From Candidatus Gottesmanbacteria bacterium (GTDB taxonomy: Bacteria > Patescibacteriota > Microgenomatia > UBA10105 > UBA927): DNA of 64,000 bases. Location: the NCBI GenBank assembly GCA_030679255.1, contig JAUXTO010000017.1:1925-65924 (forward strand). The letters run 5' to 3'. The first letter of the stretch is position 1; every line of letters starts with the position of its first letter. Of the stretch, positions 1,904-53,566 are shown one piece after another. The position numbers were made by a program, and so were the translations under genes. The notes under the pieces were generated by a model. It saw nothing but the letters and a program-made list of their open reading frames with translations, had not been told where the DNA came from and did not search any database.

Positions 1904-1973
1904 TACAAAGGCATTATAGACGAGTTGCGGGTTTTCTCAAGGCCACACCTTCACCGGACTGGATAGTGATAAA

Positions 1974-2612
1974 ATGAGAAAAATTAGGGAATTTGGGGGA
2001 TTTAGGGTATTTAGTATGAATACACCAATGGGACAGTCGAGGCCGGGTTACGAGTATTTAATCGTCTACATGCTGGGAAAAGTTATTCAGGATCTGACAT
2101 TCCAGTTCTGCCAACGGTTCTTAAAATCCCCCAAAGACCCTACATACCCTAATTTTAAACTCGTTGAACAGGTCAACGGAGCCGCACGCAGTAATCCACA
2201 AAATGTCGCCGAAGGATATACCGGTGAGTCACTTAGTAGTTATATTATGCTCGTGGGAGTCGCCAATGGTTCCAACGAAGAATTGGCCAAAGACCTAGAA
2301 GATTATTTGCGTCAACGCAATCTCCCGATCTGGGGGAAAGACCATCCGAAAGTTAGGGAATTTAGGGCATTTAGGGTTTTTTGGCTCCCAAATTCCCCAA
2401 ACTCCCAAAGCTCTCCAAGTTCCCCAAATTCCCTAAATACCCCAATATTGTCTTCCGACCCCGCAGAAGCCGCCAATATGGTTTTGACTTTTTGCAGGAT
2501 GGAGGGATATTTATTGTCACAACACATCAAAAGTCTGGAGGTAAAACACGCCAAAGAGGGTGGCTTCCGGGAAAACCTCCTCAAAAAACGCTTGGACTAT
2601 CGGAGAAAATAA
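1974..2612 (+). CDS. four-helix-bundle protein (23S rRNA intervening-sequence protein family), with an in-frame repeat-hairpin insertion; true start possibly about 2016
   Basis: EYLIVYMLGKVIQDLTFQFCQRF...SNPQNVAEGYTG...SSYIMLVGVANGSNEELAKDLEDYL matches the family pattern (YxLxVWQKAxxL...IxSNIAEGxGR...FLxIAxGSxxEL). Confidence 0.65.
   Translation: MRKIREFGGFRVFSMNTPMGQSRPGYEYLIVYMLGKVIQDLTFQFCQRFLKSPKDPTYPNFKLVEQVNGAARSNPQNVAEGYTGESLSSYIMLVGVANGSNEELAKDLEDYLRQRNLPIWGKDHPKVREFRAFRVFWLPNSPNSQSSPSSPNSLNTPILSSDPAEAANMVLTFCRMEGYLLSQHIKSLEVKHAKEGGFRENLLKKRLDYRRK
1981..2014. repeat. TTAGGGAAT-type 9-mer repeat block (left arm of inverted repeats flanking the four-helix-bundle core)
   Basis: aattagggaatttgggggatttagggtatttag. 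Confidence 0.7.
2351..2450. repeat. about 100 bp hairpin built of (TTAGGGNAT)n followed by (CCCAAANTC)n units, in-frame inside the four-helix-bundle ORF
   Basis: agttagggaatttagggcatttaggg...ctcccaaattccccaaactcccaaagctctccaagttccccaaattccctaaatacccc; the second half is the reverse complement of the first-half unit type. Confidence 0.75.
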
Positions 2613-4847: not shown

Positions 4848-6308
4848 ATGACAAAAAAATTCTATCTCCACAGCGCGATACCGTATGTAAACGCGGCTCC
4901 GCACATCGGACACGCACAGGAGTTTGTCTACTCAGACGTTATCAGACGATATCACACGCTTCTTGGTGAAGACGTCCTATATCTTTGCGGAGCTGATGAA
5001 AATGGGCTAAAGATTATTCAAGCCGCTCAAAAGGCTGGCGTTGAACCACATAAATTCTGCGATATTCATCAGCAAGAATTTCTTGACGTAGCCAAAAAAC
5101 TCAGTGTTCACTTTGATATCTGGCAGCGCGGGACAAATAAAAATCATTTTTTATCTTCACAAAAACTGTGGGAGCTCTGCGTAAAAAACGGAGATATTTA
5201 TAAAAAATCTTATGAGGGACTCTACTGCGTGGGTTGTGAGGCTTTTTATACATCCGATGAACTCAGTAAAAACGGAGAATGCTTTGAACATCCCGGCAAA
5301 AAACTTGATCGGGTTGCAGAAGAAAATTATTTTTTTCGGTTGTCAAAATATCAAAAATTTTTCGAGGAGTTAATCTTTACTGACACTCTCACGATTATTC
5401 CTCAAAGCAGAAAAAATGAGATGGTAGCCTTAATAAAAAAAGGCTTAGAAGATTTTTCTATTTCGCGCACTAAAGAACGGGCCAAAGGATGGGGAGTGCC
5501 TGTCCCGGGAGATACTGATCAAATTATGTATGTTTGGTTTGACGCAAACAACATCTATTACAGTGGAATTGGTTTAGGCTGGAATGATGAACTTTTTGCC
5601 AAGTGGGCACCGGCCGACCTTATGGTCATAGGCAAAGGAATCTTACGCTTTCATGCAATTTACTGGCCTGCGGTCCTCAAATCCGCAGGACTCCCTTTAC
5701 CTAAACAGCTCTTTGCCCATGGGTATCTCACGGTCGATGGACAAAAAATGAGTAAAACGGTTGGCAACGTAGTAGATCCCATAAAAGTTATTGAACAATA
5801 TGGAACGGACGCAGTCCGGTATTATCTCGCCCGCGAAATACCAAGCTATAGCGATGGGGATTATTCCGACCGGCGATTTAAGGAACTCTACAATGCCGAC
5901 TTGGCAAATGGGTTAGGCAATTTAGTAGCACGGGTGGGAAAAATGGCGGAAGGAAAAAGCTTTCAGCTTTCAGCTACTCGCCTCGCTCAAGCTCCGGCGA
6001 AGCGGGTCAGCTTTCAGCAAGTAAACAGTGGAGACTATAAAAAGGCGCTTGAGCAATATCGGTTTAATGATGCGTTGGCGTATGTATGGGAAAAAGTGAA
6101 AGCCGCGGATAAACATATCGATGAACATGAGCCATGGAAATTGAAGGGCGACGCGCTCCATGACGTTCTTGAAACATCCATCAACCAAATTATAGAAATC
6201 GCGACCCTCCTCCAACCGTTTCTCCCGGATACCGCAGAAAAAGTCTTGAACCAGTTTTCTACACAACCAATACAGCCGCAGCCATCCCTGTTCCCCCGCA
6301 TTACATAA
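4848..6308 (+). CDS. metG: methionyl-tRNA synthetase (short form)
   Basis: PHIGHA (HIGH) motif, KMSKT (KMSKS), CxxC zinc knuckle CVGCEAF. Confidence 0.9.
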   Translation: MTKKFYLHSAIPYVNAAPHIGHAQEFVYSDVIRRYHTLLGEDVLYLCGADENGLKIIQAAQKAGVEPHKFCDIHQQEFLDVAKKLSVHFDIWQRGTNKNHFLSSQKLWELCVKNGDIYKKSYEGLYCVGCEAFYTSDELSKNGECFEHPGKKLDRVAEENYFFRLSKYQKFFEELIFTDTLTIIPQSRKNEMVALIKKGLEDFSISRTKERAKGWGVPVPGDTDQIMYVWFDANNIYYSGIGLGWNDELFAKWAPADLMVIGKGILRFHAIYWPAVLKSAGLPLPKQLFAHGYLTVDGQKMSKTVGNVVDPIKVIEQYGTDAVRYYLAREIPSYSDGDYSDRRFKELYNADLANGLGNLVARVGKMAEGKSFQLSATRLAQAPAKRVSFQQVNSGDYKKALEQYRFNDALAYVWEKVKAADKHIDEHEPWKLKGDALHDVLETSINQIIEIATLLQPFLPDTAEKVLNQFSTQPIQPQPSLFPRIT

Positions 6309-6334: not shown

Positions 6335-7132
6335 ATGTTCATCGACACTCATTGCCACCTCAATTTTCCCCAATACGATACGGATCAGGCGATGGTCATC
6401 GGTAATGCCAAAAAAGCCGGAGTCAAACAATTTATTAATCCGGGCGTTGATCTCTTTTCTTCGCTGCAAGCCGTCAACCTTGCAAAAAAACACGTGGGCG
6501 TCATATTCGCCGCAGTGGGAATCCACCCGTATGAAGCCCAGCACGACCCCGATGTCCGCGAGTTAGAAAAAATAATTATCGAAACCATGAAAAAACGAGG
6601 TAACGAACCTTCGCCACTCGTCGCTATTGGCGAATGCGGACTGGATTATCATCAATACTCCGGAGAACAAGCTCTTGGTAAAAAAGACAAACAGAAGCGG
6701 CTATTTGCCGAACAACTGGAGCTTGCGCTCAAGTATGATCTCCCGGTCATCTTCCATTGCCGCGATGGGTATGATGATTTTTTTGACGTACTGGACAGCC
6801 TTCCATCGCAACCACGCGGGGTCATCCATTGCTTTTCCGGAGGGCTCCAGGAGGTGCGGCAGGCACAAAAACGGGAATTTTTTGTAGGATTTGACGGCAA
6901 CGTCACCTACTCGAAACACCTCCAATCCATCATCCCTTCCATTCCCCTATCGATGATCCTTCTCGAAACGGATTCCCCGTACTTGACTCCTGCCCCCCAC
7001 CGCGGCTCGCGCAATGAACCCAAGTATATTCCGCTAATAGCCACAGAAATCGCACGACTTCATGGGGTATCCGTCAAAAAAGTCGAGGAGGCAACGACAG
7101 CAAACGCCCGCACCCTCTTCCAAATATCCTAA
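6335..7132 (+). CDS. tatD: TatD family hydrolase/DNase
   Basis: MFIDTHCHL start, conserved His/Asp/Glu metal-ligand blocks (GECGLDY, VIFHCRD, ETDSPY). Confidence 0.9.
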   Translation: MFIDTHCHLNFPQYDTDQAMVIGNAKKAGVKQFINPGVDLFSSLQAVNLAKKHVGVIFAAVGIHPYEAQHDPDVRELEKIIIETMKKRGNEPSPLVAIGECGLDYHQYSGEQALGKKDKQKRLFAEQLELALKYDLPVIFHCRDGYDDFFDVLDSLPSQPRGVIHCFSGGLQEVRQAQKREFFVGFDGNVTYSKHLQSIIPSIPLSMILLETDSPYLTPAPHRGSRNEPKYIPLIATEIARLHGVSVKKVEEATTANARTLFQIS

Positions 7133-7160
7133 GCTCTTAGTAATATAATCAAGGACCTAT

Positions 7161-7225
7161 CATCCTCGGGCTTGACTCGAGGATCCAGCTCAAAAAACTT
7201 GGATTCCCGCTTTCGCGGGAATGAC
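7161..7225. repeat. about 64 bp two-hairpin repeat element (copy A), 5' of a GT2 gene
   Basis: catcctcgggcttgactcgaggatccagctcaaaaaacttggattcccgctttcgcgggaatgac; stems ATCCTCG/CGAGGAT and TTCCCGC/GCGGGAA. Confidence 0.75.
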
Positions 7226-7237
7226 AACAAGAAAAAT

Positions 7238-7969: not shown

Positions 7970-9451
7970 ATGCGCCAACTCTTTACACGGTATCCCAATA
8001 AAACACGCCGGTTCCTCGAGATTATCGTGCCGGGCACGAGCTGGCTTCTCATTACCATGCCCCTCTGGCTCTCGTTCTCCCATCCGGCGATGGTTGCCTA
8101 CCTCATCATCACATTCGACGTCTACTGGTTATATAAATCCTTTACGCTTGCCATCCACGCAATCAAGTCGTTTCTTACTCTCCAGGCCCATGTCAAAGTC
8201 GATTGGCGCGCGCAGGCCCAAATCACTCCGGGGTTCTCCGGCCTCCATCACGCCATCATCATACCGCAATACAGTGAGCCTATTCATATCCTCCGCCGGA
8301 CTCTTGAAAATTTATTGAAACAAGACTATCCACACGACCGGCTCGTTATTGTGCTTGCCACCGAAGATAAAGATCCTAACGCAAGGGAGACCGGCACCCT
8401 TCTGAAAGAAGAATTTGAGAATAAATTCGGCCATTTCCTCGTCACGCGTCATATCCTCCATCACGGTGAAGTCGCCGGAAAATCAAGTAATATGGCCTGG
8501 GCCGCCAAACGGTTAGTCCGCCAGCTGGCGGATTGGCATATACCCGTCGACCGGATCACCGTCACGTCCTGCGACGCGGACGCACTGCCGCACCCCAAAT
8601 ATTTCTCGGCTCTTACGTGCCAATTTCTTGACGATCCGGATCGGGAGTTCCATTTTTATCAAGGTGCAATTCTTTTTTATTCCAATATCTGGCGGATCCC
8701 GCTCCCTACCCGGGTCATTAACACGTTGGGAAGTATTTGGAATTTGGCGCTCCTGTCCCAACAAAGCAGATTTATCAATTTTTCTACCTACTCCCTATCT
8801 CTGGCGACGGCAGTCCGCGTCGGGTACTGGGATGTGGACGTCATCCCGGAAGATTATCATTTATTTTTTAAAGTGTACTTTGCCTTAGGAGAAAAAGTCG
8901 CCACCCGCGGGATATTTTTGCCTGTCCTGGTTGACGCAGCCGAGAGCCGGACATTTATCGGTACGCTCATCAATCAGTATGAACAATCCAAACGCTGGGC
9001 GTGGGGCGTCTCGGACATCCCCTATGTCATCCGGGGTGTATTTCTCAACAATCACATAGCCCTTCATGACCGGCTGCGACGGCTCCTCTTCCTCCTCGAG
9101 CATCACATTTTCTGGCCCTCCAATTGGTTTATCCTGACGTTGGGAAGCGCTATCCCTCCCATCCTCAATCCCGCGTTCGGCAGGACGGTGTTGGGCCACA
9201 ATCTCGCGCAGATTTCCTCCGGCATTCTCACGCTATCAGCGGTCTTTCTGCTGGTCGTTATTGTAATTGACCTGCGGGTAAAACCCCCGCGACCAAAGGA
9301 GTTTGCTGCCTGGAAACTACCGTTTCTCTATCTCCAATGGCTCACGCTTCCGATCGTTTCATTTTTTCTCGCAGCGCTCCCGGGCCTCGATGCGCACACA
9401 AGACTTATGCTTGGAAAACGTCTGGAATATCGGGTGACAGAAAAGGTATAA
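7970..9451 (+). CDS. membrane-embedded glycosyltransferase family 2 (cellulose-synthase-like architecture)
   Basis: 493 aa, N-terminal TMs, central GT2-like region (TSCDADALP, QxxRW-like QSKRWAWG), C-terminal TMs. Confidence 0.5.
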   Translation: MRQLFTRYPNKTRRFLEIIVPGTSWLLITMPLWLSFSHPAMVAYLIITFDVYWLYKSFTLAIHAIKSFLTLQAHVKVDWRAQAQITPGFSGLHHAIIIPQYSEPIHILRRTLENLLKQDYPHDRLVIVLATEDKDPNARETGTLLKEEFENKFGHFLVTRHILHHGEVAGKSSNMAWAAKRLVRQLADWHIPVDRITVTSCDADALPHPKYFSALTCQFLDDPDREFHFYQGAILFYSNIWRIPLPTRVINTLGSIWNLALLSQQSRFINFSTYSLSLATAVRVGYWDVDVIPEDYHLFFKVYFALGEKVATRGIFLPVLVDAAESRTFIGTLINQYEQSKRWAWGVSDIPYVIRGVFLNNHIALHDRLRRLLFLLEHHIFWPSNWFILTLGSAIPPILNPAFGRTVLGHNLAQISSGILTLSAVFLLVVIVIDLRVKPPRPKEFAAWKLPFLYLQWLTLPIVSFFLAALPGLDAHTRLMLGKRLEYRVTEKV

Positions 9452-9458
9452 TAAACAC

Positions 9459-10808
9459 ATGTTCACTTGGCTCCTTGCCCACTCACCCCTCTTCTACTTT
9501 ACCCAAAGCATTTGGCGGGATGAAGCATTTTCTATCTTTGTCGGAGAAAAATCCCTATCATTTATTCTCCAAAATCTTACCTTTGAGCCTCCCGTGTATT
9601 ATATCCTCCTTCACTTCTGGATCCGCCTTTTTGGGACGGGTGAAATCGCCGTCAGAAGCCTTTCACTGTTAGGATTTAGCCTGGCGACCGTCGTCGTCAT
9701 ATTCTGGAGTGAAAAGCTATTCCGCAAACACTGGCTCTCCTGGGTCACACCCATCCTCTTTTTTACCAATCCCATGCTCGTCTATTACGCATTTGAAATC
9801 CGTACGTATGGCTGGTATATGTTCTTTGCCGTGCTCTCGCTTTATGCGTATGGTGAGTCGCGGTGGCGCTTGTGGGTCATCGCCACTCTATTAGGGTTTT
9901 ATACCCATACATATTTCCTCTTTCTTTTTGCCGCCCAAGGCATTCATTGGATGACATTCCATCGGAATAAACTTATGAAGCCATTTTCCCTTCTCCGCGA
10001 GCCCATGATCGTAAGCTCAATCCTCGCATTCTCCGCGATGATTCCATGGCTGATCCGGGTCATACGTGAAGCGGCAACACTCAAGGATTCCTGGTACTTT
10101 CCGGTTAATTGGAATTTAGTGCGATCAGTGTTGGGCAATATGTATCTGGGATATGAAGGTACACCATGGCACCTCTGGGGATTTACCGCCAATCTATCGC
10201 TACTCCTGCTCGTGATGTTTTTCTTCGCGTTACGGGGTAAAGCAACACGCAGCCGCAATACCATCTTCCTTTTTAGCGCCATTATTCCCCTCGCGATTGT
10301 CATCGGCGTGTCATTCATCAAACCTTTATTCGTCAACCGCTATCTCATCAGTGTCACGATAGCCGAAATATTCCTGATCGCTCTTGCCATAGAAGCCATT
10401 AAAAATTCCTTTATCCAAAAATTTGTTGCTTGGTGCTTTGTGCTTGGTGCGTTAGCATTTAATATGTGGTACCCCTCCCAACACGCCAAACTCGACATCC
10501 GTACGACGATACAGGAAGTCAACGCGCTGAAAGGAAAAAACGATATCATTCTCGCAACAAGTCCTCTCATTTTTTTTGAAACTCAATATTACTCCGACGA
10601 CCGACGCCGGGTATTCCTCTATAACCCCCACAGTGTCCCGTTTCCATGGTATGTGGGAGGCGTATTAGTCACGAACGATCAGATGATCACTGATCTTCCT
10701 GTGTATCCTCCATCCCGCGCATTCTTAGTCGCCGAAGACGGATCATTCACCATCAGCTACCGTGCCCCGCCATACGCACTTGCACAAAAAACAAAAAAAG
10801 GGTTATGA
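9459..10808 (+). CDS. GT-C glycosyltransferase, family 39/83-like (ArnT/PMT-like)
   Basis: multi-TM with early RDEAF motif typical of GT-C PMT/ArnT enzymes. Confidence 0.55.
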   Translation: MFTWLLAHSPLFYFTQSIWRDEAFSIFVGEKSLSFILQNLTFEPPVYYILLHFWIRLFGTGEIAVRSLSLLGFSLATVVVIFWSEKLFRKHWLSWVTPILFFTNPMLVYYAFEIRTYGWYMFFAVLSLYAYGESRWRLWVIATLLGFYTHTYFLFLFAAQGIHWMTFHRNKLMKPFSLLREPMIVSSILAFSAMIPWLIRVIREAATLKDSWYFPVNWNLVRSVLGNMYLGYEGTPWHLWGFTANLSLLLLVMFFFALRGKATRSRNTIFLFSAIIPLAIVIGVSFIKPLFVNRYLISVTIAEIFLIALAIEAIKNSFIQKFVAWCFVLGALAFNMWYPSQHAKLDIRTTIQEVNALKGKNDIILATSPLIFFETQYYSDDRRRVFLYNPHSVPFPWYVGGVLVTNDQMITDLPVYPPSRAFLVAEDGSFTISYRAPPYALAQKTKKGL

Positions 10809-19586: not shown

Positions 19587-20507
19587 TCAGATTTCCCTCA
19601 CCCAACGGAAAATTGTATGGACGACTGCTTTTTCTTTTCCGCTATAACTATGCAGTGCGTCGCGAATGATGACGCTTTTATAGCGTAGCGACCGGGCGTG
19701 TCGAGCGAAAACATCAAGTACATTCTTTACCGGCCGGTCAAGATATTCATCGTTGGAACCAATAATGACAAGCAATGGCTGTTTGATCGCAGAAAAACAC
19801 GCAAGCTTCGGTGAGGCATCTCCATAATCAAAGACGTCCTCCGTTGAATGCGGCTCAAAGATACTGATAAACCGATTGGACGTCACCGGAAATACATGAA
19901 TGCTGCTCATCAACACATCCCCTTGCCCATCGATAACTTTTTTCTTCATCTCCTCTAATTGCTTTTCAATCACTTCCTTATCCAGAGAGGGCTCCAACCG
20001 GTCGCTCACCGGAGAAAGTAATAATACTCCCGCCACCCTCTTGTCCCTTTTCGTCCCGGCGTAGTAACACACTTTATTCGCGCCGGTGCTATGACCTACC
20101 AGAATAATCTCCGAATATCCTTGTTTAACGAGAAATGAAATACCGGCGTCGATATCATACACACAGTCCTCAAACCGCTCATATCCCGCGCCGCCATTCA
20201 CCCTCGTATATTCATTCGGTTCACGCGGATCAATTTTTTTGATGCCGGTCACAATGTCATGCCCGCGGTTATTAAACGCCGCAAACCCTATTCCTTCTTT
20301 CTCACACGCATCAGCAATCAATTCAAAAAGTTTTACATTGTTATAGAACGTACTCGTCAACCCATGGATCCAAAGGATGGCTTTGCCCGCCGTCTTGCCC
20401 GCCATAGCCTTGGCGAAGGCGGGAGCTTTACGAGAAGGAGAGTAATATATCCCCTGATGAACGAGTTTATCTTTCGTCACAATTTCCGCCAAATAAAACT
20501 GTTTCAT
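19587..20507 (-). CDS. alpha/beta fold hydrolase
   Basis: HGLTS...GHSTGAN nucleophile elbow. Confidence 0.6.
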   Translation of the reverse strand: MKQFYLAEIVTKDKLVHQGIYYSPSRKAPAFAKAMAGKTAGKAILWIHGLTSTFYNNVKLFELIADACEKEGIGFAAFNNRGHDIVTGIKKIDPREPNEYTRVNGGAGYERFEDCVYDIDAGISFLVKQGYSEIILVGHSTGANKVCYYAGTKRDKRVAGVLLLSPVSDRLEPSLDKEVIEKQLEEMKKKVIDGQGDVLMSSIHVFPVTSNRFISIFEPHSTEDVFDYGDASPKLACFSAIKQPLLVIIGSNDEYLDRPVKNVLDVFARHARSLRYKSVIIRDALHSYSGKEKAVVHTIFRWVREI

Positions 20508-24091: not shown

Positions 24092-25093
24092 TTACCGCGC
24101 ATAAAAAATCTTGTCAAGGGGTATATTAAAACGCGCCAACCGTTCTCCTAATTTTTTCTTTATCCATTCCCTGGCGTCCTGGGGATGGAAACGGATGACC
24201 GTATCCGTGACAACCTCCGAAGAGCGGCGTTTGCTCATATACCACAGCTGAAGTACACGAGCGGGTACTTCAGTAAATCTCAATAACCAAATCACAATGA
24301 CCAATGCAAACATTTTTTGCGTCTTACTTTTGACTTTTGACTTTTGTCCCGCGGAGCTGGATCCCGCTTCGCGGGAACTTTTGACTTTTTCCTCCCATGC
24401 ATTCGGCAAAAACTTCTTCACCCATCGATTAGCAAGTAAAAATTTTTGATGCATCTCTCCCTGTTGCCATAGTGGCGTCATCAAGAGCACTTCGTGCGCA
24501 GAAAACAGATCCCTCTCCCGAGCAGGTAACGCGAGACCTTCCTCACTCATAAACATATTAAGACAGATGAGATTGCTGACATTCTTATCGTTTGGACGAC
24601 GCCGGAGATGAAAAATATCAAGAAGAATAGTCGTTAATGCGCGGGTAATCCATACTGTTTTCGGACTACAGAGAATAAAAAAGTCTATATCATCTTGTTC
24701 GTTGGCGTTGGACCGCGCAAGTCCTCCGGTCACCCCGACGAGGGTTATCGATCGAATACACCGGAGTAATCCGGCAATCCATCGGGCACGCTTCCATTTT
24801 TTTGAGGATAACTTCAAACGTTTGCTTCGTAACGCAACGAACCGCTTGCCCGGACGTATTGAGTAGTACGTAATGTTATCGGCGATACTATGATAGCCTT
24901 GCAAGACATGCTCTTGCGAGGCTGCAAGAGAGTGTCTTGCAGGAATAAATGGCAACCACGTTTGGAGTTCATCAACCGTCAATGGATAATCAAAAATATC
25001 GGCATACGATAGACCCGTGATCAACGCATCACGTTTTGTTATGTTCATGAAATTATTGAGGAGTAGATGGGGCAGTACTACTCGTGAGTCCAT
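24092..25093 (-). CDS. Pol-beta-superfamily nucleotidyltransferase-like protein (uncharacterised) with in-frame repeat insertion
   Basis: GVTGGLARSNANEQDDIDFFIL fits the G[SG]x9-13DxD NTase motif; internal SSREAGSSSAGQKSKVKSK is encoded by hairpin and heptamer repeats. Confidence 0.4.
   Translation of the reverse strand: MDSRVVLPHLLLNNFMNITKRDALITGLSYADIFDYPLTVDELQTWLPFIPARHSLAASQEHVLQGYHSIADNITYYSIRPGKRFVALRSKRLKLSSKKWKRARWIAGLLRCIRSITLVGVTGGLARSNANEQDDIDFFILCSPKTVWITRALTTILLDIFHLRRRPNDKNVSNLICLNMFMSEEGLALPARERDLFSAHEVLLMTPLWQQGEMHQKFLLANRWVKKFLPNAWEEKVKSSREAGSSSAGQKSKVKSKTQKMFALVIVIWLLRFTEVPARVLQLWYMSKRRSSEVVTDTVIRFHPQDAREWIKKKLGERLARFNIPLDKIFYAR
24326..24392. repeat. heptamer TTTTGAC repeats flanking a GC hairpin (third partial copy of the two-hairpin element) inside a CDS
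   Basis: cttttgacttttgacttttgtcccgcggagctggatcccgcttcgcgggaacttttgactttttcc. Confidence 0.8.
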
Positions 25094-28619: not shown

Positions 28620-29807
28620 ATGAATATCCTCGCAATCGAAACATCGTTCGATGAAACGGCTTGTGCGATTATTGAGGATGGAACGAAAATCATCAGTAAT
28701 GTTCTGGCAACGAGTCACGAAATGCATGATAAATACGGCGGGGTCGTGCCCGAAATCGCCGCACGCAGGCAACTCGAGTGCATCATCCCCGTGATCTCAG
28801 AATCTCTCCAACCCCTCGCCACTAGCAATTCTACACTTCTCCATAGAAGTGGAGAATTATTTCCTGATTGGATAAGAAAAACGATTAAAGAATCAATTGA
28901 TGCTATTGCCGTCACAGTCGGACCGGGACTCATTGGATCGCTTTTGGTCGGCGTGGAAACCGCCAAGACCATCGCATTCGTCACTGACAAGCCGATCATC
29001 CCCGTCAACCATGTACTTGCCCATATGTATGCGAATTTTCTCGATTCCAATCGTGAAAATTCGTCCCGAGCGCAGTCGAGGAAAACACTTATTGAATTCC
29101 CCTCCATCTCCCTCGTCGTATCCGGCGGACACACAGAACTTTATTTGATGAAGTCAGCCAAAGACCTGACGTGGATAGGAGGGACGCTGGATGATGCAGC
29201 AGGAGAATGTTTTGACAAAACTGCCCGTCTGTTGGGTTTCGGCCACGGCGGTGGAGTGGCAATAGAAGCTGCTGCTTCAAAATATCAAATAGCAAATAGC
29301 AAAAATCAAATAAAATTGCCTAGACCAATGATGGATGATAAAACGCTCAATTTTTCCTTCAGCGGACTGAAAACCGCGGTCATGAGGGAATGGAAAAAGT
29401 GTCATCCCGGACTTGATCCGGGATCCAGTTCAAAAAAAGATTCCGGCTCGGAGGCCGGAATGACAAGCGCCTTCGCCCACGAAATACAGGAAGCCATTAC
29501 CGATGTTCTTGTCAAAAAAACAATTCGCGCGGCAAAACAATATGAGGCAAAATCCATTCTCCTCTCCGGCGGTGTGGCAGCCAACACACGTCTCCGAGAA
29601 AAGTTTCTCTCTACACTTTCCACTTTACACTCTCCACTTTTTTTCGCGCCTCCCCCGTCTCTCTGCACCGATAACGCCGTCATGATCGCCGCGTGCGCCT
29701 ACTTCAATGGTGAATCCACAAATTGGCGCAACATTACTGCTGCGCCTGATTTGTCCGTTGAGCTTTTCAATTCTTCGCTCACAGATCAACTCCCAGATTC
29801 CTCTTGA
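28620..29807 (+). CDS. tsaD: tRNA N6-adenosine threonylcarbamoyltransferase TsaD (Kae1/Gcp family) with several in-frame insertions
   Basis: MNILAIETSFDETACAI, VSGGHTELY, DDAAGECFDKTARLLG, SGGVAANTRLR, CTDNAVMIA; extra segments relative to canonical TsaD are encoded by hairpin repeats. Confidence 0.85.
   Translation: MNILAIETSFDETACAIIEDGTKIISNVLATSHEMHDKYGGVVPEIAARRQLECIIPVISESLQPLATSNSTLLHRSGELFPDWIRKTIKESIDAIAVTVGPGLIGSLLVGVETAKTIAFVTDKPIIPVNHVLAHMYANFLDSNRENSSRAQSRKTLIEFPSISLVVSGGHTELYLMKSAKDLTWIGGTLDDAAGECFDKTARLLGFGHGGGVAIEAAASKYQIANSKNQIKLPRPMMDDKTLNFSFSGLKTAVMREWKKCHPGLDPGSSSKKDSGSEAGMTSAFAHEIQEAITDVLVKKTIRAAKQYEAKSILLSGGVAANTRLREKFLSTLSTLHSPLFFAPPPSLCTDNAVMIAACAYFNGESTNWRNITAAPDLSVELFNSSLTDQLPDSS
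29402..29465. repeat. about 64 bp two-hairpin repeat element (copy B), in-frame inside tsaD, encoding PGLDPGSSSKKDSGSEAGMT
   Basis: tcatcccggacttgatccgggatccagttcaaaaaaagattccggctcggaggccggaatgac; both stems keep pairing relative to copy A through compensatory changes. Confidence 0.8.
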
Positions 29808-30221: not shown

Positions 30222-30231
30222 ACTCTCTCTC
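30222..30231. repeat. (CT)5 dinucleotide tract in bidirectional promoter region
   Basis: ctctctctct, read directly. Confidence 0.9.
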
Positions 30232-30258
30232 TGGGCAAAAGTCAAGAAAATGGGGTAT

Positions 30259-30330
30259 CCAGGTAGTAGAAACTCGACTGCATCCCAAAGTGATGCACGA
30301 TCTATCACTTGTCGAGTTTTCACTACCTGG
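30259..30330. mobile_element. 72 bp MITE-like element with 20 bp terminal inverted repeats, flanked by TAT
   Basis: ccaggtagtagaaactcgac...gtcgagttttcactacctgg; an identical copy sits at 33182-33253; absent from the otherwise homologous leader at 31290-31330. Confidence 0.65.
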
Positions 30331-30344
30331 TATACTTGGGATAT

Positions 30345-30668
30345 ATGGCTCACCCACCGAAGTCACTGCAAGGGACACTCTGGTCAAGCGATGTCAATCA
30401 ACTTGATCTCGACAAACACAGGGCCTACATCATCCACCAAATCCTCACGTTTGGCACCATGGATGAGCTCAAGTGGTTATTTGGGACCTACCCGAAACGG
30501 GAAATTGTCGATACATTTGTCCATCAACCAATGAAAATGTACCCAAATCATATCTATTGGTTCACAAAAAACCACCTCCTTTCTCTCCAACATACCCAGC
30601 TTGACGAACAAAACTATGTCACATCTCTTTTTGGACCAACTCGACCCCGAGCGGCAGCGGGTGTTTGA
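30345..30668 (+). CDS. small partner protein of AbiEii-like NTase (putative antitoxin/regulator), module 1
   Basis: MAHPPKSLQG...LDLDKHRAYIIHQIL...; paralogous to 31331 and 33268; 3' end overlaps the downstream NTase gene by about 53 nt. Confidence 0.6.
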   Translation: MAHPPKSLQGTLWSSDVNQLDLDKHRAYIIHQILTFGTMDELKWLFGTYPKREIVDTFVHQPMKMYPNHIYWFTKNHLLSLQHTQLDEQNYVTSLFGPTRPRAAAGV

Positions 30669-32272: not shown

Positions 32273-32734
32273 TTAAGAAGATTTTTTTATGACAAAGGCA
32301 TCGGTCAGAAGCCGCGACTGCCAATCGTACGCTTGGGCGACGTGTTCGGGGTTGCCTAATTTGACGAGCTCCTGGCTGATGAGTCGCGCCAAGTGATATC
32401 CTCCCAACGCTTCGCGATCAGCAGTTTGGACAAACAACGGGTGATCACGGTTGATAAAAATGATGCCTCCCTCCACAAAGCTCTAGCATGCCAAATTCAT
32501 GCCACCGATTTTGACGACACTCGCATCAGCGTCGTAGGCGTTGGCGACCAACTCCCGCACGAGATCCAGGCTCTCCGCACAGAGCCGGGTGCCGATAGTC
32601 GTCAGATGCGACTTATCAAGGGTAATGGGGATGGTAGACTGCTGCGCGGGGCTATTATATACCAAATATTCTGACAACGCCGTCATGATCGGAGCTGCTG
32701 CCTTTTTTAAAGGTATATCCACAGATTGGCCCAC
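32273..32734 (-). pseudogene. GHKL-ATPase N-terminal remnant with in-frame TAG (copy 1)
   Basis: LVRELVANAYDADASVVKIGGMNLAC-TAG-SFVEGGIIFINRDHP: Bergerat N-box (ELVxNAxDA) followed by a degenerate G1 box; truncated at both ends; its 5' part is antisense to the tsaD-3' duplicate. Confidence 0.5.
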
Positions 32735-32771
32735 AATTACTGCTACTCCTGATCTGGTTGTAGAAATATAG
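32665..32771 (+). repeat. duplicated tsaD 3'-end fragment (att-like scar)
   Basis: encodes DNAVMIGAAAFFKGISTDWPTITATPDLVVEI, close at both nt and aa level to the tsaD C-terminus DNAVMIAACAYFNGESTNWRNITAAPDLSVEL at 29680-29780. Confidence 0.7.
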
Positions 32772-33143: not shown

Positions 33144-33155
33144 CTCTCTCTCTCT
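33144..33155. repeat. (CT)6 dinucleotide tract
   Basis: ctctctctctct. Confidence 0.9.
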
Positions 33156-33181
33156 GGAAAAATGTCAAGGAAGTGGGGTAT

Positions 33182-33253
33182 CCAGGTAGTAGAAACTCGA
33201 CTGCATCCCAAAGTGATGCACGATCTATCACTTGTCGAGTTTTCACTACCTGG
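33182..33253. mobile_element. 72 bp MITE-like element, second identical copy
   Basis: identical to 30259-30330; the surrounding roughly 113 nt is identical between copies although the downstream CDSs are only about 40-50% identical. Confidence 0.65.
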
Positions 33254-33267
33254 TATACTTGGGATAT

Positions 33268-33573
33268 ATGGCTCACCCACCGAAAGATCTCCAAGGGGCC
33301 CTCTGGTCAGCAGAGGTCAACACAATGGATTTGGAGAAAGATAAAAATTACATCATCCATCAGGTCTTTTCACACGGATCACTGGAGGATATGTTCTGGG
33401 TCTTGCGAACCTATCCCCGAGATAGCATCCGGCACGTCTTCGCCACAGTACCGTATAAAGACTACCGCGCACCACGGTTTTACTTCATAAAAAACTTCCT
33501 TCTTAATCTGCGAGATACTCCCATGAACGAACATCGTTATGTCAAAAATATTCCTCGAGATATTAGATCCTGA
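33268..33573 (+). CDS. small partner protein, module 3
   Basis: MAHPPKDLQGALWSAEVNTMDLEKDKNYIIHQVF... Confidence 0.6.
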   Translation: MAHPPKDLQGALWSAEVNTMDLEKDKNYIIHQVFSHGSLEDMFWVLRTYPRDSIRHVFATVPYKDYRAPRFYFIKNFLLNLRDTPMNEHRYVKNIPRDIRS

Positions 33574-34279: not shown

Positions 34280-34675
34280 TTATGAAGAAGATTTCTTTAT
34301 GACAAAAGCATCGGTCAGAAGCCGCGACTGCCAATCGTACGCCTGAGCAATCTCTCCGGAACGGGCAAGTTTGACGAGCTCCTGGGTGATGAGTCGCGCC
34401 AAGTGATACCCTCCCAACCCTTCGCGGTCAGCAGTTTGGACAAACAACGGGTGATCACGGTTGATAAAAATGATGCCTCCCTCCACAAAGCTCTAGCATG
34501 CCAGATTCATGCCACCGGTTTTGACGACACTCGCATCAGCATCGTAGGCGTTGGCGACGAGCTCTCGCACGAGATCCAGGCTCTCCGCATAGAGCCGGGT
34601 GCCAATAGTAGTCAAGTGTGATTTATCAAACGTAATAGGGATCGTGGATTGCTGCACGGGACTATTATATACCAA
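34280..34675 (-). pseudogene. GHKL-ATPase N-terminal remnant with the same in-frame TAG (copy 2)
   Basis: about 90% nt identity to copy 1; LVRELVANAYDADASVVKTGGMNLAC-TAG-SFVEGGIIFINRDHP. Confidence 0.5.
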
Positions 34676-34808
34676 ACGCTCCTACAATTCCCCCAGCGAA
34701 AAAATCATGCCAATTTCCCTCCGGTCGGGAGTAAAATAGCATGATTTATTTTATGCCACCAATTCCGTCATGATCAGCGCCGCCGGACCGTCCCGAAATT
34801 CACTCTCA

Positions 34809-35233: not shown

Positions 35234-37507
35234 ATGGACAAAGCGTATAATCCGCAAGCAGTTGAGGAAGCCATATATAAGATGTGGGAAACCGGGGGAT
35301 ATTTTACCCCGAAATTAATTCCTAAAGAAGCCCTGCCTGCCGGCAGGCAGCCATTTTCCATCCTTCTCCCTCCACCCAACGCTAACGCTGACCTGCACGT
35401 CGGGCATGCGATGTATGTGGTCGAGGACATTATGATCCGCTATCACCGCATGAAGGGCGACCCCACGCTCTGGATGCCCGGGGCCGACCACGCAGGATTT
35501 GAGACGCAGTATGTGTATGAAAAACATTTGGCTAAACAGGGAAAGAGCCGGTTTGATTTTGACCGGGAGACACTGTATAAAGATATCTGGAACTTTGTCC
35601 ACACAAACCGCGGCTCGATGGAAAACCAACTCCGAAGGTTAGGGTTTTCGCTCGATTGGAGTCGAAACGTTTTTACCCTGGATCCTAGCATAGTTGAAAC
35701 GGTATACAAATCTTTTAAGCAGCTTTTTGACGAAGGACTTGTGTACCGCGATAAACGTCTGGTCAATTACTGCACCAAAGACGGTACCGGATTTTCGGAC
35801 CTCGAAGTCCTTTACGTCGAGCGCAATGACCCTCTCTACTATATTAAGTACGGCCCCTTCACTATCGCCACCGCCCGGCCGGAAACGAAATTCCGCGACA
35901 CGGCTCTCGCTGTCAACCCCAAAGACAAGCGCTATAAAAAGTACATCGGACAAACATTAGAAATTATGGGGCTCCTGGGTCCCATCACGATGACGGTCAT
36001 CCCTGATCCGCACGTCGATCCCAAATTTGGTACCGGCATCATGAAAGTGACACCGGCCCATGACCCGCATGATTTTGAGCTTGGACGGCAATTTAATCTG
36101 CCCGTCACTCCCATCATCGATTTCCGCGGAAAGATGGACTTTTCGTGGTTTCTCTCCCAAAAAGACATTGATCCTAAATATAGGGCACGGGCAGAAAATT
36201 ACCATGGTAAAAAAGTGGCCATCGTCCGGCCGCTCATGGTTGAAGATCTCAAAGCTGATGGACTGATGATAAAAATCGATGAAGCCTACACCCATCGGAT
36301 CGGTACCTGCTGGAAATGCGGAACCGTCATCGAGCCGCTTCCCCTGGAACAGTGGTATGTGAAAGTTGCCCCGATGACAAAAAAGGCAATCGAGGCGATC
36401 AATAAAAAACAAGTGACGTTTGTTCCGAAGCGGTTTGAAAAAACAGCCAAACAGTGGCTCACGAACTTCCATGACTGGAACATCAGCCGTCAAAATGTAT
36501 GGGGAATCCGGATCCCGGCATGGCACTGCGCACTTTGTGCGCAGAATCCGACCCGCTTCGCCAAAGCGATAGCGAGGCGAGCAAATACTACCAATAAGTC
36601 AAACGCTCAATCAATAAGACTCTCCGGATGGGTTGTGACGGATGGGGAAAAGCCAGAAACGTGTCCGACGTGCGGGGGCCGCGATCTCACCCAGGACACG
36701 GATACATTTGATACATGGTTTAGCTCGGGACAATGGCCCTTCGCAACGCTTCGCGCAACAAGAGACTTTGACTATTTCTATCCGACGACGGTCATGGAAA
36801 CGGGATATGACATCCTCCCCTGGTGGGTATGCCGGATGCTTATGCTCGGCATTCATTTAACCGGCAGCGTGCCGTTCACCACCGTCTATCTTCATGGACT
36901 CGTCCGGGATGCACAAGGTCAAAAAATGAGTAAGAGCAAAGGCAATGTCATCAATCCTCTCAAAATGGTTGATCAATACGGTGCCGATGCGCTCCGGATG
37001 GCGCTCGTGTTTGGCACGGGAGCGGGAAACGATCAGGCGCTCTCGGAAGACAAAATCCGTGGGATGCGGAATTTTGCCAATAAATTGTGGAACATTGGAC
37101 GGTTCATTGAAATGAACCTTCAAATCTCAAATCCCTATGACCAAATCACAATATACGATGAAAACATGCATAAAATGCTCAAAAATCCCAATGATAAACG
37201 GATCATTTCCCAAACGAATATGCTTGTTGCCGGAGTCACGAAGGATCTTGATCGATACCGATTCTCCGATGCTGCTCAGAAAATCTATAACTTTACCTGG
37301 CATACGCTCGCCGATGTGCATTTGGAAAAAAATAAAGAACGGTTTAAAGAAGGTGATGGTCAGGCAATAGCGGTTCTTCGACACGTCTTCCTCACGATCA
37401 TGAAACTTCTCCACCCGTTCATGCCTTTTGTGACGGAAGAAATCTGGAGCAAACTACCGAGAAAAACGACTGATCCTCTCATCATCTCCCCTTGGCCCGG
37501 GAATTGA
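35234..37507 (+). CDS. valS: valyl-tRNA synthetase (compact, no C-terminal coiled coil)
   Basis: PPPNANADLHVGHA (HIGH), KMSKSKGN (KMSKS), editing (CP1) and anticodon-binding regions. Confidence 0.9.
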   Translation: MDKAYNPQAVEEAIYKMWETGGYFTPKLIPKEALPAGRQPFSILLPPPNANADLHVGHAMYVVEDIMIRYHRMKGDPTLWMPGADHAGFETQYVYEKHLAKQGKSRFDFDRETLYKDIWNFVHTNRGSMENQLRRLGFSLDWSRNVFTLDPSIVETVYKSFKQLFDEGLVYRDKRLVNYCTKDGTGFSDLEVLYVERNDPLYYIKYGPFTIATARPETKFRDTALAVNPKDKRYKKYIGQTLEIMGLLGPITMTVIPDPHVDPKFGTGIMKVTPAHDPHDFELGRQFNLPVTPIIDFRGKMDFSWFLSQKDIDPKYRARAENYHGKKVAIVRPLMVEDLKADGLMIKIDEAYTHRIGTCWKCGTVIEPLPLEQWYVKVAPMTKKAIEAINKKQVTFVPKRFEKTAKQWLTNFHDWNISRQNVWGIRIPAWHCALCAQNPTRFAKAIARRANTTNKSNAQSIRLSGWVVTDGEKPETCPTCGGRDLTQDTDTFDTWFSSGQWPFATLRATRDFDYFYPTTVMETGYDILPWWVCRMLMLGIHLTGSVPFTTVYLHGLVRDAQGQKMSKSKGNVINPLKMVDQYGADALRMALVFGTGAGNDQALSEDKIRGMRNFANKLWNIGRFIEMNLQISNPYDQITIYDENMHKMLKNPNDKRIISQTNMLVAGVTKDLDRYRFSDAAQKIYNFTWHTLADVHLEKNKERFKEGDGQAIAVLRHVFLTIMKLLHPFMPFVTEEIWSKLPRKTTDPLIISPWPGN

Positions 37508-45165: not shown

Positions 45166-45414
45166 TATGTATTCACCACCTTTTAGAAACACTTAACGAA
45201 TAAAATGAGTTTAGTGTTTCTTAAACCCGCCGCCCCGCTTCGCTATGGCTTCAGCGAGGCGAGTCACGCGCCCTTTACGACGTGTACGAATAGTACTGAA
45301 AAGTCGTAAAGCAAGCGTAGGCGGGCTATGAAAAATCGTCAACTTTGTATTTTATCTCACCCATCATAGTACATCCAAACAGCAAAAAACAATCACTCAA
45401 AAACATGACAAGTT

Positions 45415-51893: not shown

Positions 51894-53066
51894 ATGAACA
51901 ATCTAAACAAGCTTCATCTATCCGGTTACGGTCGTGACTTTCTGCGGACGTGGGACAAATCCGCGGATCATCTTAAAGCCACGCTTGCTGTCGCCCAGAC
52001 CTTGCGCGACTGGCACCGCAAAGGAATATCACCAAAAGTTTTTTCCTCCAGCATGGCCGTCTCCATATTCCGCGATAAATCTACGCGCACAAAATACAGC
52101 TACTCTGCAGCGGCAAATTTACTGGGTCTGGAAATTGAAGACCTCGATGAAAAAAAGTCCCAAATCGCTCATGGGGAAACGATTATGGAAACAGTGAACA
52201 TGCTCTCGTTTCTTACGCGTACGATAGGCATCCGCGACGACATCTTTTTAGGGTTGGGCCACAGCTATATGACAGAAGTGGCCCTAGCTGCCGATTGGGG
52301 ATACGCCAATGGCGTACTCGACCAGCGCCCGAGTGTCATCAATCTCCAATGCGACGAGGACCACCCGACGCAATCATTGTCCGATCTTCTCCACCTCTCC
52401 AATTATTTTGGCGGGTTAGATAAGCTCCGTGGGAAAAACCTCACCATGAGTTGGGCCTACTCCCCTTCCTACGGAAAACCCCTGTCCGTGCCGCAGGGAA
52501 TTATTGCCCTCCTCCCCCGCTTTGGCATTAACGTAACCCTTTCCTATCCCAAGGGCTACAACCTCATTCCGGAGATTGAAAGCCTTGCTACGCGGGAAGC
52601 CAAAAAGGACGGCAGCACATTTCGGATCACCCATGACATGAGAGAGGCATTTATAGATGCAGACATCGTCTATCCCAAGTCATGGGCATCGTATGCCGTG
52701 ATGAGTCGCCGCACCGAGCTCTTGAAAAAAAACTATGTGAAGGGGCTTGAACATCTCGAGGGCGAAGCGCTCGCCCAAAATGCGAAACACAAAGACTGGA
52801 CGTGTACCGAAAAACTCATGAAACAAACGCGTAACGGTAATGCGCTCTATATGCACTGTCTCCCTGCCGATATCAGTGGCGTGAGCTGCAAAGAAGGAGA
52901 GGTTGATGCAAAAGTATTTGAAAAATATAAAAAACAAACGTATACCCAGGCCGGCTACAAACCGTATATTATTGCTGCCATGATCCTCCTCACCCAATTT
53001 GGAGAAAAGACACCGAAAATTCTCCGTTCAATCGGACAAAGAAACCAATCGGTCTTCAATTTTTGA
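51894..53066 (+). CDS. carbamoyltransferase superfamily protein, YgeW-like (about 390 aa)
   Basis: STRTK, HPTQ, HCLP; SMG replaced by KSWA; longer than OTC/ATC, consistent with YgeW-type. Confidence 0.6.
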   Translation: MNNLNKLHLSGYGRDFLRTWDKSADHLKATLAVAQTLRDWHRKGISPKVFSSSMAVSIFRDKSTRTKYSYSAAANLLGLEIEDLDEKKSQIAHGETIMETVNMLSFLTRTIGIRDDIFLGLGHSYMTEVALAADWGYANGVLDQRPSVINLQCDEDHPTQSLSDLLHLSNYFGGLDKLRGKNLTMSWAYSPSYGKPLSVPQGIIALLPRFGINVTLSYPKGYNLIPEIESLATREAKKDGSTFRITHDMREAFIDADIVYPKSWASYAVMSRRTELLKKNYVKGLEHLEGEALAQNAKHKDWTCTEKLMKQTRNGNALYMHCLPADISGVSCKEGEVDAKVFEKYKKQTYTQAGYKPYIIAAMILLTQFGEKTPKILRSIGQRNQSVFNF

Positions 53067-53097
53067 CTTTTAACTTTTGACTTTAGACTTTTGACTT
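53061..53097. repeat. degenerate TTTTGAC heptamer array between convergent genes
   Basis: ttttgacttttaacttttgactttagacttttgac. Confidence 0.8.
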
Positions 53098-53566
53098 ATG
53101 TATACCTATCCGCCACCTTGCTCGCCGCATAACTTTCCGGCTTAATCTTCACCGCGTACCCTGACCCCCGAATCATACCGACGATCTCCGTGATCATCTC
53201 ACGGGTCTTGCCAAATTGTCCGATATCCACATGAATTTCCACGTCATATTTGGTCACCCCATCTTTATGAAGGAGGGCCACGACCGTCTCTGCCATCTCG
53301 AGAGACATCGTCGCTTCTTCATACATCCGTTGCCGCAGGACGTACTTTTTTTTGATGACGATCCGTTTCCAAAAATAAATACCACCACGTCCCACGCGAT
53401 GCACGACAATCGTCGTGACAAAATCCACACCCGCCGCATTGTGTGGCTGAGAATCGGTCCCAACCACCAACTGATACTTACTTTCGGGGTCCGCAGCAAG
53501 AAACGCGAGGATATGTTCGCGAATTTGAGGTAATTCTAAATTTCCGTAGGTAGGACTTTGGAACAT
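53096..53566 (-). CDS. RNase-H-like YkuK family protein (DUF458)
   Basis: YQLVVGTDSQ...TTIVVHRVGRGGIYFWKR matches B. subtilis YkuK pattern (VVGTDS...IVIHRIGKGGTYF). Confidence 0.6.
   Translation of the reverse strand: MFQSPTYGNLELPQIREHILAFLAADPESKYQLVVGTDSQPHNAAGVDFVTTIVVHRVGRGGIYFWKRIVIKKKYVLRQRMYEEATMSLEMAETVVALLHKDGVTKYDVEIHVDIGQFGKTREMITEIVGMIRGSGYAVKIKPESYAASKVADRYT

Follow-up and report, generated by a model that had tools for sequence, protein, structure and literature searches.

The present study deals with two short palindromic elements, named copy A and copy B, in a 64,000-nt stretch of DNA from Candidatus Gottesmanbacteria, which belongs to the Candidate Phyla Radiation (CPR). 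The stretch covers positions 1,925 to 65,924 (forward strand) of contig JAUXTO010000017.1 in GenBank assembly GCA_030679255.1; it is called the window below, and coordinates refer to it unless a related locus is named. The closest described relatives of both elements are the CGTC-tagged repetitive extragenic palindromic (REP) sequences, which were grouped into the families CGTC-1 to CGTC-4 (Di Nocera, De Gregorio & Rocco, 2013, BMC Genomics 14:522, PMC3733652; Di Nocera et al., 2013 below). These REPs carry the tag CGTC or TGTC (variants include CCTC), a stem of 8-9 bp opening with A-T and T-A pairs, a loop of 4-5 nt and a CCA tail, and they occur mostly as HH dimers with outer tags, often as heterodimers. 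Subfamilies with complementary stem variants exist, and intragenic dimers code for 20-30 residues, sometimes twice per gene. The Neisseria repeat dRS3 as well as RPE-4 and RPE-6 from Rickettsia are members of this superfamily, whose copies are reported not to flank RAYT genes. In-frame CGTC REP dimers are already known, RPE-4 and RPE-6 being examples. The survey included five phyla, mostly Alphaproteobacteria, and preceded the CPR genomes.

A second related system is the Neisseria motif NTS, CGTCATTCCCGCGMAVGCGGGAATCYRG, which represents a longer form of dRS3 (Chenal et al., 2025, Nat Commun 16:2388, PMC11893778). NTS and the Ssn-related motifs (SRM) are targets of small GIY-YIG nucleases, the Ssn proteins, which bind and cleave them as single-stranded DNA (ssDNA) and do not interact with RNA. 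The Ssn proteins correspond to cd10448, and copies of the motifs frequently flank the genes that encode them. Chenal et al. (2025) mention neither Patescibacteria nor intragenic copies nor dimer modules.

The window elements share with the surveyed CGTC REPs the tag, the 8-9 bp stem with A-T/T-A opening, the short loop, the CCA-type tail and the outer-tag heterodimers, and furthermore the compensatory stem variants, the presence of some dimers inside open reading frames (ORFs) and unit ends able to supply stop codons (Di Nocera et al., 2013). They differ in their CPR host, one 6-nt loop (unit B2), one TATC tag (unit A1) and spacers shorter than most. The likeness to NTS/SRM is based on unit A2, which is close to NTS, on unit B1, an exact SRM, and on motif-flanked ssn genes in two other genomes, one of them CPR. 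However, the window is without an ssn gene, and the published function, modulation of natural transformation, was shown in Neisseria. Regarding the dRS3/NIME repeats of Neisseria, A2 holds an exact dRS3, but the window has isolated dimers, some of this kind in coding sequence, instead of RS-type mosaic arrays. As in the Rickettsia RPE, palindromic repeats stand in frame in protein genes, housekeeping genes included, and are tolerated as an extra peptide, although the host is a free-living or episymbiotic groundwater CPR bacterium and not an obligate intracellular Rickettsia; RPE-1 is longer (>100 bp) and shows no sequence kinship to the window elements. The REP/BIME/REPIN sequences of E. coli and Pseudomonas are likewise short, tagged, dispersed palindromes, mostly in inverted pairs, and a dedicated small enzyme recognises them as ssDNA hairpins. 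They have a GTAG tag and a Y1 HUH transposase (RAYT), whereas the window elements have the CGTC tag and a GIY-YIG nuclease association; moreover, the arms of REPINs are mutually complementary, which is not true for the two units of the window dimers.

Two heterodimers of CGTC-tagged REP units

Copies A and B are both built as HH heterodimers, and their CGTC-tagged REP units are the same as the NTS and Ssn-related motifs. Their parts, together with those of a smaller derivative, copy C, are as follows.

7158-7226, copy A, whole element, intergenic
7158..7188, plus strand, copy A unit 1 (A1): tag TATC at 7158-7161, loop CTTGA, tail CCAG at 7185-7188; stem ATCCTCGGG (7162-7170) / CTCGAGGAT (7176-7184) with one G-T pair
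7189..7198, copy A, A-rich spacer between the tails, CTCAAAAAAC
7199..7226, minus strand, copy A unit 2 (A2), minus-strand read TGTCATTCCCGCGAAAGCGGGAATCCAA; stem 7203-7210 / 7215-7222
29400-29465, copy B, whole element, inside tsaD
29400..29428, plus strand, copy B unit 1 (B1), TGTCATCCCGGACTTGATCCGGGATCCAG; stem 29404-29411 / 29417-29424
29429..29439, copy B, spacer and degenerate tail, TTCAAAAAAAG
29440..29465, minus strand, copy B unit 2 (B2), minus-strand read TGTCATTCCGGCCTCCGAGCCGGAAT; stem 29440-29447 / 29454-29461
24347..24376, minus strand, copy C, 30-nt REP-derived in-frame insert inside a GTCAAAA heptamer array

Each unit, taken 5' to 3' along the strand on which it lies, begins with an unpaired tag plus AT, which is followed by a stem (8-9 bp), a loop (4-6 nt) and the tail CCAG or CCAA. 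The tag is TGTC in A2, B1 and B2 and TATC in A1; the units quoted from relatives have mostly TGTC and once CGTC (locus L132, 10769). Loops comprise 5 nt (A1), 4 nt (A2), 5 nt (B1) and 6 nt (B2), and the tails of the first three units are CCAG, CCAA and CCAG, while B2 ends in a degenerate CTT; hence, one loop and one tail fall outside the published range of a 4-5 nt loop and a CCA tail. Two different units are joined tail to tail in a module of 64-70 nt with the order GTCAT-hairpin 1-ATCCAG-spacer-hairpin 2-ATGAC, in which the tails face each other over the A-rich spacer and the tags are outermost. The distance from stem to stem is approximately 18 nt in copy A and 15 nt in copy B. Since the window units fit both published definitions, the element is a member of a described family. 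The SRM pattern HGTCWYN(0-2)YYVSBRHN(0-5)WNVSBRGN(0-2)RNCYNB is matched by B1 without mismatch, by A2 with one and by A1 and B2 with two mismatches each, and shuffled windows gave on average 0.28 exact matches. A2 agrees with the Neisseria NTS consensus at 26/28 positions and is an exact dRS3 (ATTCCC-N8-GGGAAT). Family identity and dimer architecture are thus observed directly. Beyond that, we consider it likely that A and B are non-autonomous CGTC-REP/SRM HH dimers which act as ssDNA hairpins, with an Ssn-type nuclease as their probable recognition enzyme, and which protein loops can accommodate in frame.

The initial annotation of this DNA had described A and B as colinear two-hairpin elements, and both of its sequences are found in the window: the string for copy A lies exactly at 7161-7225, the one for copy B at 29403-29464, i.e. 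it was placed one base off at each end. Its four stems (ATCCTCG/CGAGGAT, ATCCCGGA/TCCGGGAT, TTCCCGC/GCGGGAA and TTCCGGC/GCCGGAA) are all perfect Watson-Crick helices. An exact hairpin scan returned 8-bp stems at 7203-7222, 29404-29424 and 29440-29461, and an independent Logan assembly from another read set (L130) equals copy A base for base up to its contig end at window position 7225. A third, partial copy next to the GTCAAAA heptamers was also proposed; it exists, as the 30-nt derivative at 24347-24376, and is no full copy. This copy C (TCCCGCGGAGCTGGATCCCGCTTCGCGGGA; minus-strand read TCCCGCGAAGCGGGATCCAGCTCCGCGGGA, encoding SREAGSSSAG) was not detected by the covariance model of the hairpin unit and is a collapsed derivative of the HH module.

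Pairing, conservation and the type of structure possibly under constraint

The compensatory stem changes claimed in the initial annotation were recovered in an alignment of nine units, which combines the four window units with units from three relatives. The stems comprise 8-9 bp and the loops 3-6 nt (gap-free alignment columns). Each of the nine units opens its stem with A-T and then T-A (columns 6/28 and 7/27), and eight further columns are paired. Four of nine stem pairs are altered on both sides and 90% of the cells are paired, compared to 12-58% in a control with slid partner columns. The pattern TTCCSGC-N(2-12)-GCSGGAA was observed twice, with 0.02 occurrences expected from shuffles. A covariance-model search of the 64 kb returned exactly four strong matches, the hairpins of A and B, with E values of about 1e-10 to 1e-13: A1 at 7157-7191 on the plus strand (37.0 bits, E 4e-10), A2 at 7195-7227 on the minus strand (38.6 bits), B1 (47.3 bits, E 9e-14) and B2 at 29434-29466 on the minus strand (41 bits). 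The next matches, with E >= 0.08, were the same four hairpins on the other strand. The model was trained on nine sequences that include the four window units, which makes the scores of these four partly circular; the informative result is that no other place in the window scores.

It was left open in the initial annotation whether selection acts on RNA or on DNA structure. We regard it as improbable that the modules are structured RNA elements selected at the transcript level for cis-regulation, processing or stability, and hairpin roles in mRNA such as 3'-end protection of tatD, translation control of the GT2 gene or ribosome pausing in tsaD appear no more probable to us. Some features would suit such roles. 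Copy A is indeed intergenic and 5' of the GT2 gene, in a 105-nt spacer between co-directional genes, 26 nt past the tatD stop (7132) and 11 nt before the GT2 start (7238); REPs of other bacteria often appear in transcripts and lend stability to the mRNA upstream of them (Di Nocera et al., 2013); A1 has a G-U pair and the fold z-scores are about -4 (range -3.3 to -4.2). However, both strands fold about equally well, the G-U pair in A1 is the only one in 81 stem cells, and no family of Rfam 15 gave a match at the gathering threshold anywhere in the window. The opposite orientations of the units within a dimer mean that no single RNA-strand grammar is conserved, and the element turns up in different phyla, within unrelated genes as well as between genes. 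Furthermore, the published binding protein acts on ssDNA without RNA interaction (Chenal et al., 2025). From the equal folding of both strands, the single G-U pair, the missing Rfam match and the properties of this nuclease it follows that the structure under constraint is most likely an ssDNA hairpin rather than RNA; of the two options in the initial annotation, the DNA one is thus favoured. Copy A, which folds as two separate stems, was also considered as a terminator, but the only match resembling a terminator falls on the minus strand, which is non-coding here and has no gene end at this place.

The elements are more conserved than their host genes. Third-codon identity in copy B is 20/22 between the window and locus L001 and 18/22 between the window and locus L002 (82-91%), versus 189/360 and 191/356 (approximately 53%) in the rest of tsaD; the binomial probability of this excess is 1.5e-4 (L001) and 6e-3 (L002). 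Copy C is identical between the window and L002 at 28/30 positions, compared to 563/855 in the rest of its host gene. Orthologous copies show one stem pair changed from A-T to G-C on both sides, and their loops vary freely. The conservation excess itself is an observation, and it can be read in either of two ways, as a constraint on the hairpin at the DNA level or as a sign that the copies are younger than the host divergence due to re-insertion or conversion. If it reflects selection, a DNA-level function would be embedded in essential genes.

Occurrence in relatives and in other phyla

With the covariance model, further units were found in relatives, always as pairs of a plus and then a minus unit. 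The same order with outer tags is seen in all 13 dimers in the window and in loci L001, L002, L007, L128 and L132. The tsaD gene of L001 (GCA_016218205.1) contains three dimers, and here an identical 99-nt composite stands twice, base for base, at 8367-8465 and 8565-8663, 198 nt apart. Within it, the hairpin 1 loop of a dimer encloses a second, different hairpin element, and this twin composite is the clearest sign of recent copying. L002 has three dimers, of which two lie in tsaD and the third at the 3' end of the gene for a class I aminoacyl-tRNA synthetase, and L132 has one inside tatD and one intergenic dimer; these two loci are treated as one genome, as proteins of both are recorded on one contig, which makes five dimers in approximately 34 kb. 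At the tsaD site of copy B, L007 carries another REP subfamily, including the canonical GTCATTCCCGCGCAGGCGGGAATCCAG. In a related contig from Hainich groundwater (L202, 47% G+C), topA is interrupted by a B-type dimer in the same frame as copy B (CHPGLDPGSRDKKMDSGSKAGMT).

Dispersal is also observed on a wider scale. A generic dimer pattern matched at least 120 stretches of species-representative genomes from many phyla, with about 10 CPR genomes among the matches listed, and the B-type pattern matched at least 120 metagenome stretches (median G+C of 60% among the matches listed). An intragenic location was considered as a peculiarity of CPR; yet, 16/116 non-CPR dimers among the matches listed also lie in open frames of at least 60 codons on both sides, and the 5/15 dimers of CPR loci in such frames come from a set biased by locus choice. 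As host of the CGTC REP family, Candidatus Gottesmanbacteria (CPR) appears to be new, and so does the in-frame presence of this dimer type in topA of L202. Other points that appear to be absent from Di Nocera et al. (2013) and Chenal et al. (2025) are the repeated use of tsaD loops by different subfamilies, the synonymous conservation excess and the twin composite of L001. These new points are leads on mobility and no new system.

Filled and empty orthologues of the host genes

The genes around the elements are the following.

6335..7132, plus strand, tatD-family hydrolase gene, 5' neighbour of copy A; a 100%-identical protein (P0241) carries PF01026
7238..7936, plus strand, GT2 glycosyltransferase gene; orthologues in L131 and L132 have PF00535 and their start is the equivalent ATG
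28620..29807, plus strand, tsaD, host of copy B (Pfam TsaD on homologues); the element encodes residues 261-282 (CHPGLDPGSSSKKDSGSEAGMT)
24092..25093, minus strand, ORF of unknown family, host of copy C, conserved and syntenic in L001, L002 and L007

The gene at 24092 gave no Pfam match, and its earlier label as NTase-like could not be verified. The in-frame translations proposed for both host genes, PGSSSKKDSGSEAG for tsaD and SSREAGSSSAGQ for the 24092 gene, are correct. Also the expected loop position of the insert was found: an AlphaFold model of TsaD (mean pLDDT 64) shows a low-confidence coil at 262-275 between the helices 250-261 and 276-307, with pLDDT < 50 at 269-275, and REP-encoded residues additionally form the first turns of helix 276-307. 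The PDB matches of TsaD, 6nak and 6n9a (Thermotoga maritima TsaD, 8e-64), have a gap at the insert position.

In-frame occupancy against empty orthologous sites is directly visible in tsaD and in the 24092 gene, for which both filled and empty orthologues exist, always with a net length change divisible by three, which supports the tolerated in-frame insertion suggested in the initial annotation. The initial annotation would have taken the inserts for ordinary lineage-specific loops if no further copies existed and related genomes had the same tsaD residues without hairpin potential; further copies do exist, and so do insert-free orthologues. None of the copies has a stop codon in the host frame. 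Across genes, the left end of the element is used in three different reading frames, while at the ATGAC end two of three frames are open and the third is stopped by the TGA within ATGAC. In an alignment of 33 TsaD orthologues, REP-type peptides (CHPGLDPGS...EAGMT, SFVIPGLTRNP...GGRDD, SCHSREDGNL...QVWDD, SVIPAQAGIQ...RSGMT) occupy at least three different loops in different reading frames. The closest TsaD pair, L002 (filled) and L005 (empty) with 84.5% identity, has 72 nt versus 27 nt at the site, preceded by 48 nt of identical upstream flank. In tatD of L132, a dimer-containing segment of 78 nt stands in the place of 39 nt. The window and L002 possess copy C as a clean addition of 30 nt, whereas L007 and L001 have an unbroken heptamer array at this place; a near-identical 26-nt core of copy C is found in the tatD-GT2 spacer of L132 as well.

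A single ancestral insertion into tsaD followed by vertical descent was rejected, as L002 and L005 differ in occupancy and L007 has another subfamily at the site. This difference and the L007 subfamily require turnover, in which gain, loss and conversion are indistinguishable. The tsaD segment SNRENSSRAQSRKT was considered as a decayed REP, but its DNA forms only a weak 5-bp stem and we make no such claim.

One could also assume that the inserts are lineage-specific protein loops which became palindromic in situ, e.g. by template-switch mutations, and that A and B resemble each other by convergence. The empty tsaD alleles resemble the 5' arm and loop of hairpin 1 (ATCCCGGACTTGAT), and the filled/empty differences are replacements without target-site duplication, both of which would agree with this idea. 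However, the same tag-stem-loop-tail grammar and even identical 26-nt stretches recur at non-homologous places and in other phyla, the identical 99-nt composite stands twice in one gene, copy A is outside any gene, and the element is far more conserved at synonymous sites than the host gene. Palindromic loops arising in situ are already largely refuted by the twin composite, the matches in other phyla, the shared 26 nt and the topA dimer, and we regard them as extremely improbable.

The term REP/MITE-like in the initial annotation remains valid in its first half, the likeness to REPs. The MITE-like half does not hold, because the filled/empty pairs are without target-site duplication and 21-39 nt of host sequence are replaced. 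Target-site duplications were found in none of the filled/empty pairs of tsaD, tatD and the 24092 gene. A REPIN or BIME doublet moved by a RAYT (IS200/IS605-like Y1 transposase), or a MITE derived from an insertion sequence (IS), would likewise be small and without own coding capacity, and inverted hairpin doublets are typical for REPINs and BIMEs. Nevertheless, such an origin is highly improbable in our view: the tag is (C/T)GTC and not GTAG, the units of a dimer differ and do not form the long REPIN hairpin, long terminal inverted repeats and target-site duplications are missing, no transposase is present among the 50 window ORFs and no IS was found in the window. In addition, according to Di Nocera et al. 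(2013), RAYT genes do not have CGTC REPs at their sides.

Association with Ssn nucleases and a possible mechanism

Two other genomes link the units of the window type with Ssn genes. In Candidatus Wildermuthbacteria, also CPR (L128, region 9862-10474; GCA_016186005.1), an ssn-type GIY-YIG gene lies directly 3' of the gene for the NAD-dependent DNA ligase. It is preceded by a dimer and a single unit, a further unit overlaps its stop codon, and a dimer follows; the gene ends in the TGA of this unit (within ATGAC). A stretch of 26 nt of A2, GGATTCCCGCTTTCGCGGGAATGACA, is identical to a unit flanking the ssn gene of L128. The published arrangement NTS-ssn-NTS therefore occurs in CPR for the unit type of the window. 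The second case is L037 (Omnitrophota), one among the genomic matches listed, in which a regular-expression scan recovered a 97-residue GIY-YIG protein flanked by dimers. Homologues of the L037 Ssn are very numerous and 70-80% identical, one of them annotated as being from Candidatus Wildermuthbacteria; neither the window nor the Gottesmanbacteria-related loci contain a counterpart of the L037 protein. The 99-residue protein of L128 is approximately 78% identical to the Omnitrophota homologue, which is unusually high across phyla. The pair of Ssn nuclease and hairpin is thereby placed in the CPR.

For the Gottesmanbacteria genome we infer both the dependence on Ssn and the copying mechanism. 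The modules would be non-autonomous genomic repeats, in which each unit is a palindrome forming a hairpin in ssDNA. A small Ssn-family GIY-YIG nuclease (cd10448), with its gene in another part of the genome, would recognise the hairpins in their ssDNA form, and copies might arise or be refreshed at replication or recombination intermediates, either by copying initiated by the nuclease or by gene conversion between copies. Copies that come to lie in surface loops with a length change divisible by three would be translated as short loops rich in Gly, Ser, Pro and Asp and would persist. This last step makes use of the fact that the units are open in two of three frames at the ATGAC end, so that in-frame copies in surface loops can be translated and retained.

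Several points weigh against the reading of A and B as Ssn-recognised, non-autonomous dimers. Within the 64-kb window, neither ssn nor any GIY-YIG domain, Y1 or other transposase was found by motif scan, tblastn with an authentic Ssn sequence and Pfam scans of the 50 ORFs. The window contains only two dimers and one derivative in 64 kb and the copy number in the genome may be low. The filled/empty differences are replacements of 21-39 nt of host sequence and not clean insertions, and the empty tsaD allele (AATCCGGAACTTGAT, encoding NPELD) itself resembles a REP arm. Because of the replacements and the REP-like empty allele, fresh transposition and the long residence of old copies, with decay and renewal by gene conversion, are equally likely. 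Moreover, the high synonymous conservation could reflect recent independent arrival and not selection. Ssn proteins are not known from experiments to mobilise these repeats in any organism.

A bolder assumption is that, among Gottesmanbacteria and adjacent CPR lineages, CGTC-REP/SRM dimers are active today and are kept by preference or renewed continually in surface loops of essential housekeeping genes (tsaD, tatD, topA, aminoacyl-tRNA synthetases), with the DNA hairpins remaining intact while the host gene diverges. We regard this as unlikely. If true, the dimers would be functional chromosomal sites rather than neutral passengers, possibly Ssn-dependent marks that govern uptake or recombination of core-gene DNA in tiny, gene-dense genomes, and they would represent the first natural evidence for Ssn-associated hairpin modules copying themselves to new sites. 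The filled/empty allele pairs and the L001 twin composite can be used for testing repeat mobility.

The practical value is modest and includes annotation. Gly/Ser/Pro-rich linkers and peptides such as LDSRFRGND, IPAFAGMT, VIPAQAGIQ and CHPGLDPGS in CPR proteins are translated REP units, which should not be taken for lineage-specific functional motifs or for spurious small ORFs.

Other repeats in the window

Copy C is surrounded by in-coding tandem arrays of 7 nt, with GTCAAAA (minus strand) at 24323-24346 and 24377-24390. Further 7-nt arrays are located at 1341-1403 and 53049-53111 and, within tsaD, at 29294-29325 (ATAGCAA) and 29605-29639 (CACTTTC). The arrays are in frame, as three units comprise 21 nt, and encode peptides such as KSKVKSK and KYQIANSKNQIK. 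Other heptamers occupy the orthologous positions: CTCAAAA in L001, AGTTCAA in L006, AGTTTAA in L002 and L005, and CTACAAC in L007. In other lineages, the loops that have heptamer arrays here are occupied by REP dimers. The pattern resembles a concerted evolution of arrays that are prone to slippage and lie in protein loops.

A second, unrelated class of GC-rich repeats (ACTCGCCTCGCT...GGCGAAGCGGG) has three copies, two of them in frame in genes: at 5973-6013 in metG (encoding ATRLAQAPAKRVSFQ), at 36545-36581 in the gene of an 817-aa class I aminoacyl-tRNA synthetase, and at 45229-45264 in intergenic DNA. Its arms pair only when G-U is allowed. The L001 dimer encloses a similar sequence in its hairpin loop, and a similar peptide, ARLAEAPTKRVS, occurs in another TsaD (P0036).

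Downstream of tsaD, three DUF6922/AbiEii toxin-antitoxin modules follow in succession, each followed by a diverged duplicate of the tsaD 3' end with 75-79% identity (29670-29753 versus 32673-32756 and 34760-34783; 30223-30493 versus 33146-33416; 32275-32574 versus 34285-34584). It looks as if cassettes had been integrated repeatedly at the tsaD 3' end, regenerating this end each time.

For the ORF at 1974-2612, the best hint of a family is the 23S rRNA intervening-sequence protein (PF05635), which it matches below threshold (30.5 bits versus a cutoff of 33.8), and the ORF is bracketed by 9-nt repeat arrays, TTAGGGNAT and reverse complements, at window positions 1971-2445. Finally, the alpha/beta-hydrolase gene at 19587-20507 (minus strand) contains near its N-terminus the segment SPSRKAPAFAKAMAGKTAGK (20388-20474), read as RRLARHSLGEGGSF on the opposite strand, which is a GC-rich low-complexity insert of the kind that produces spurious ORFs.

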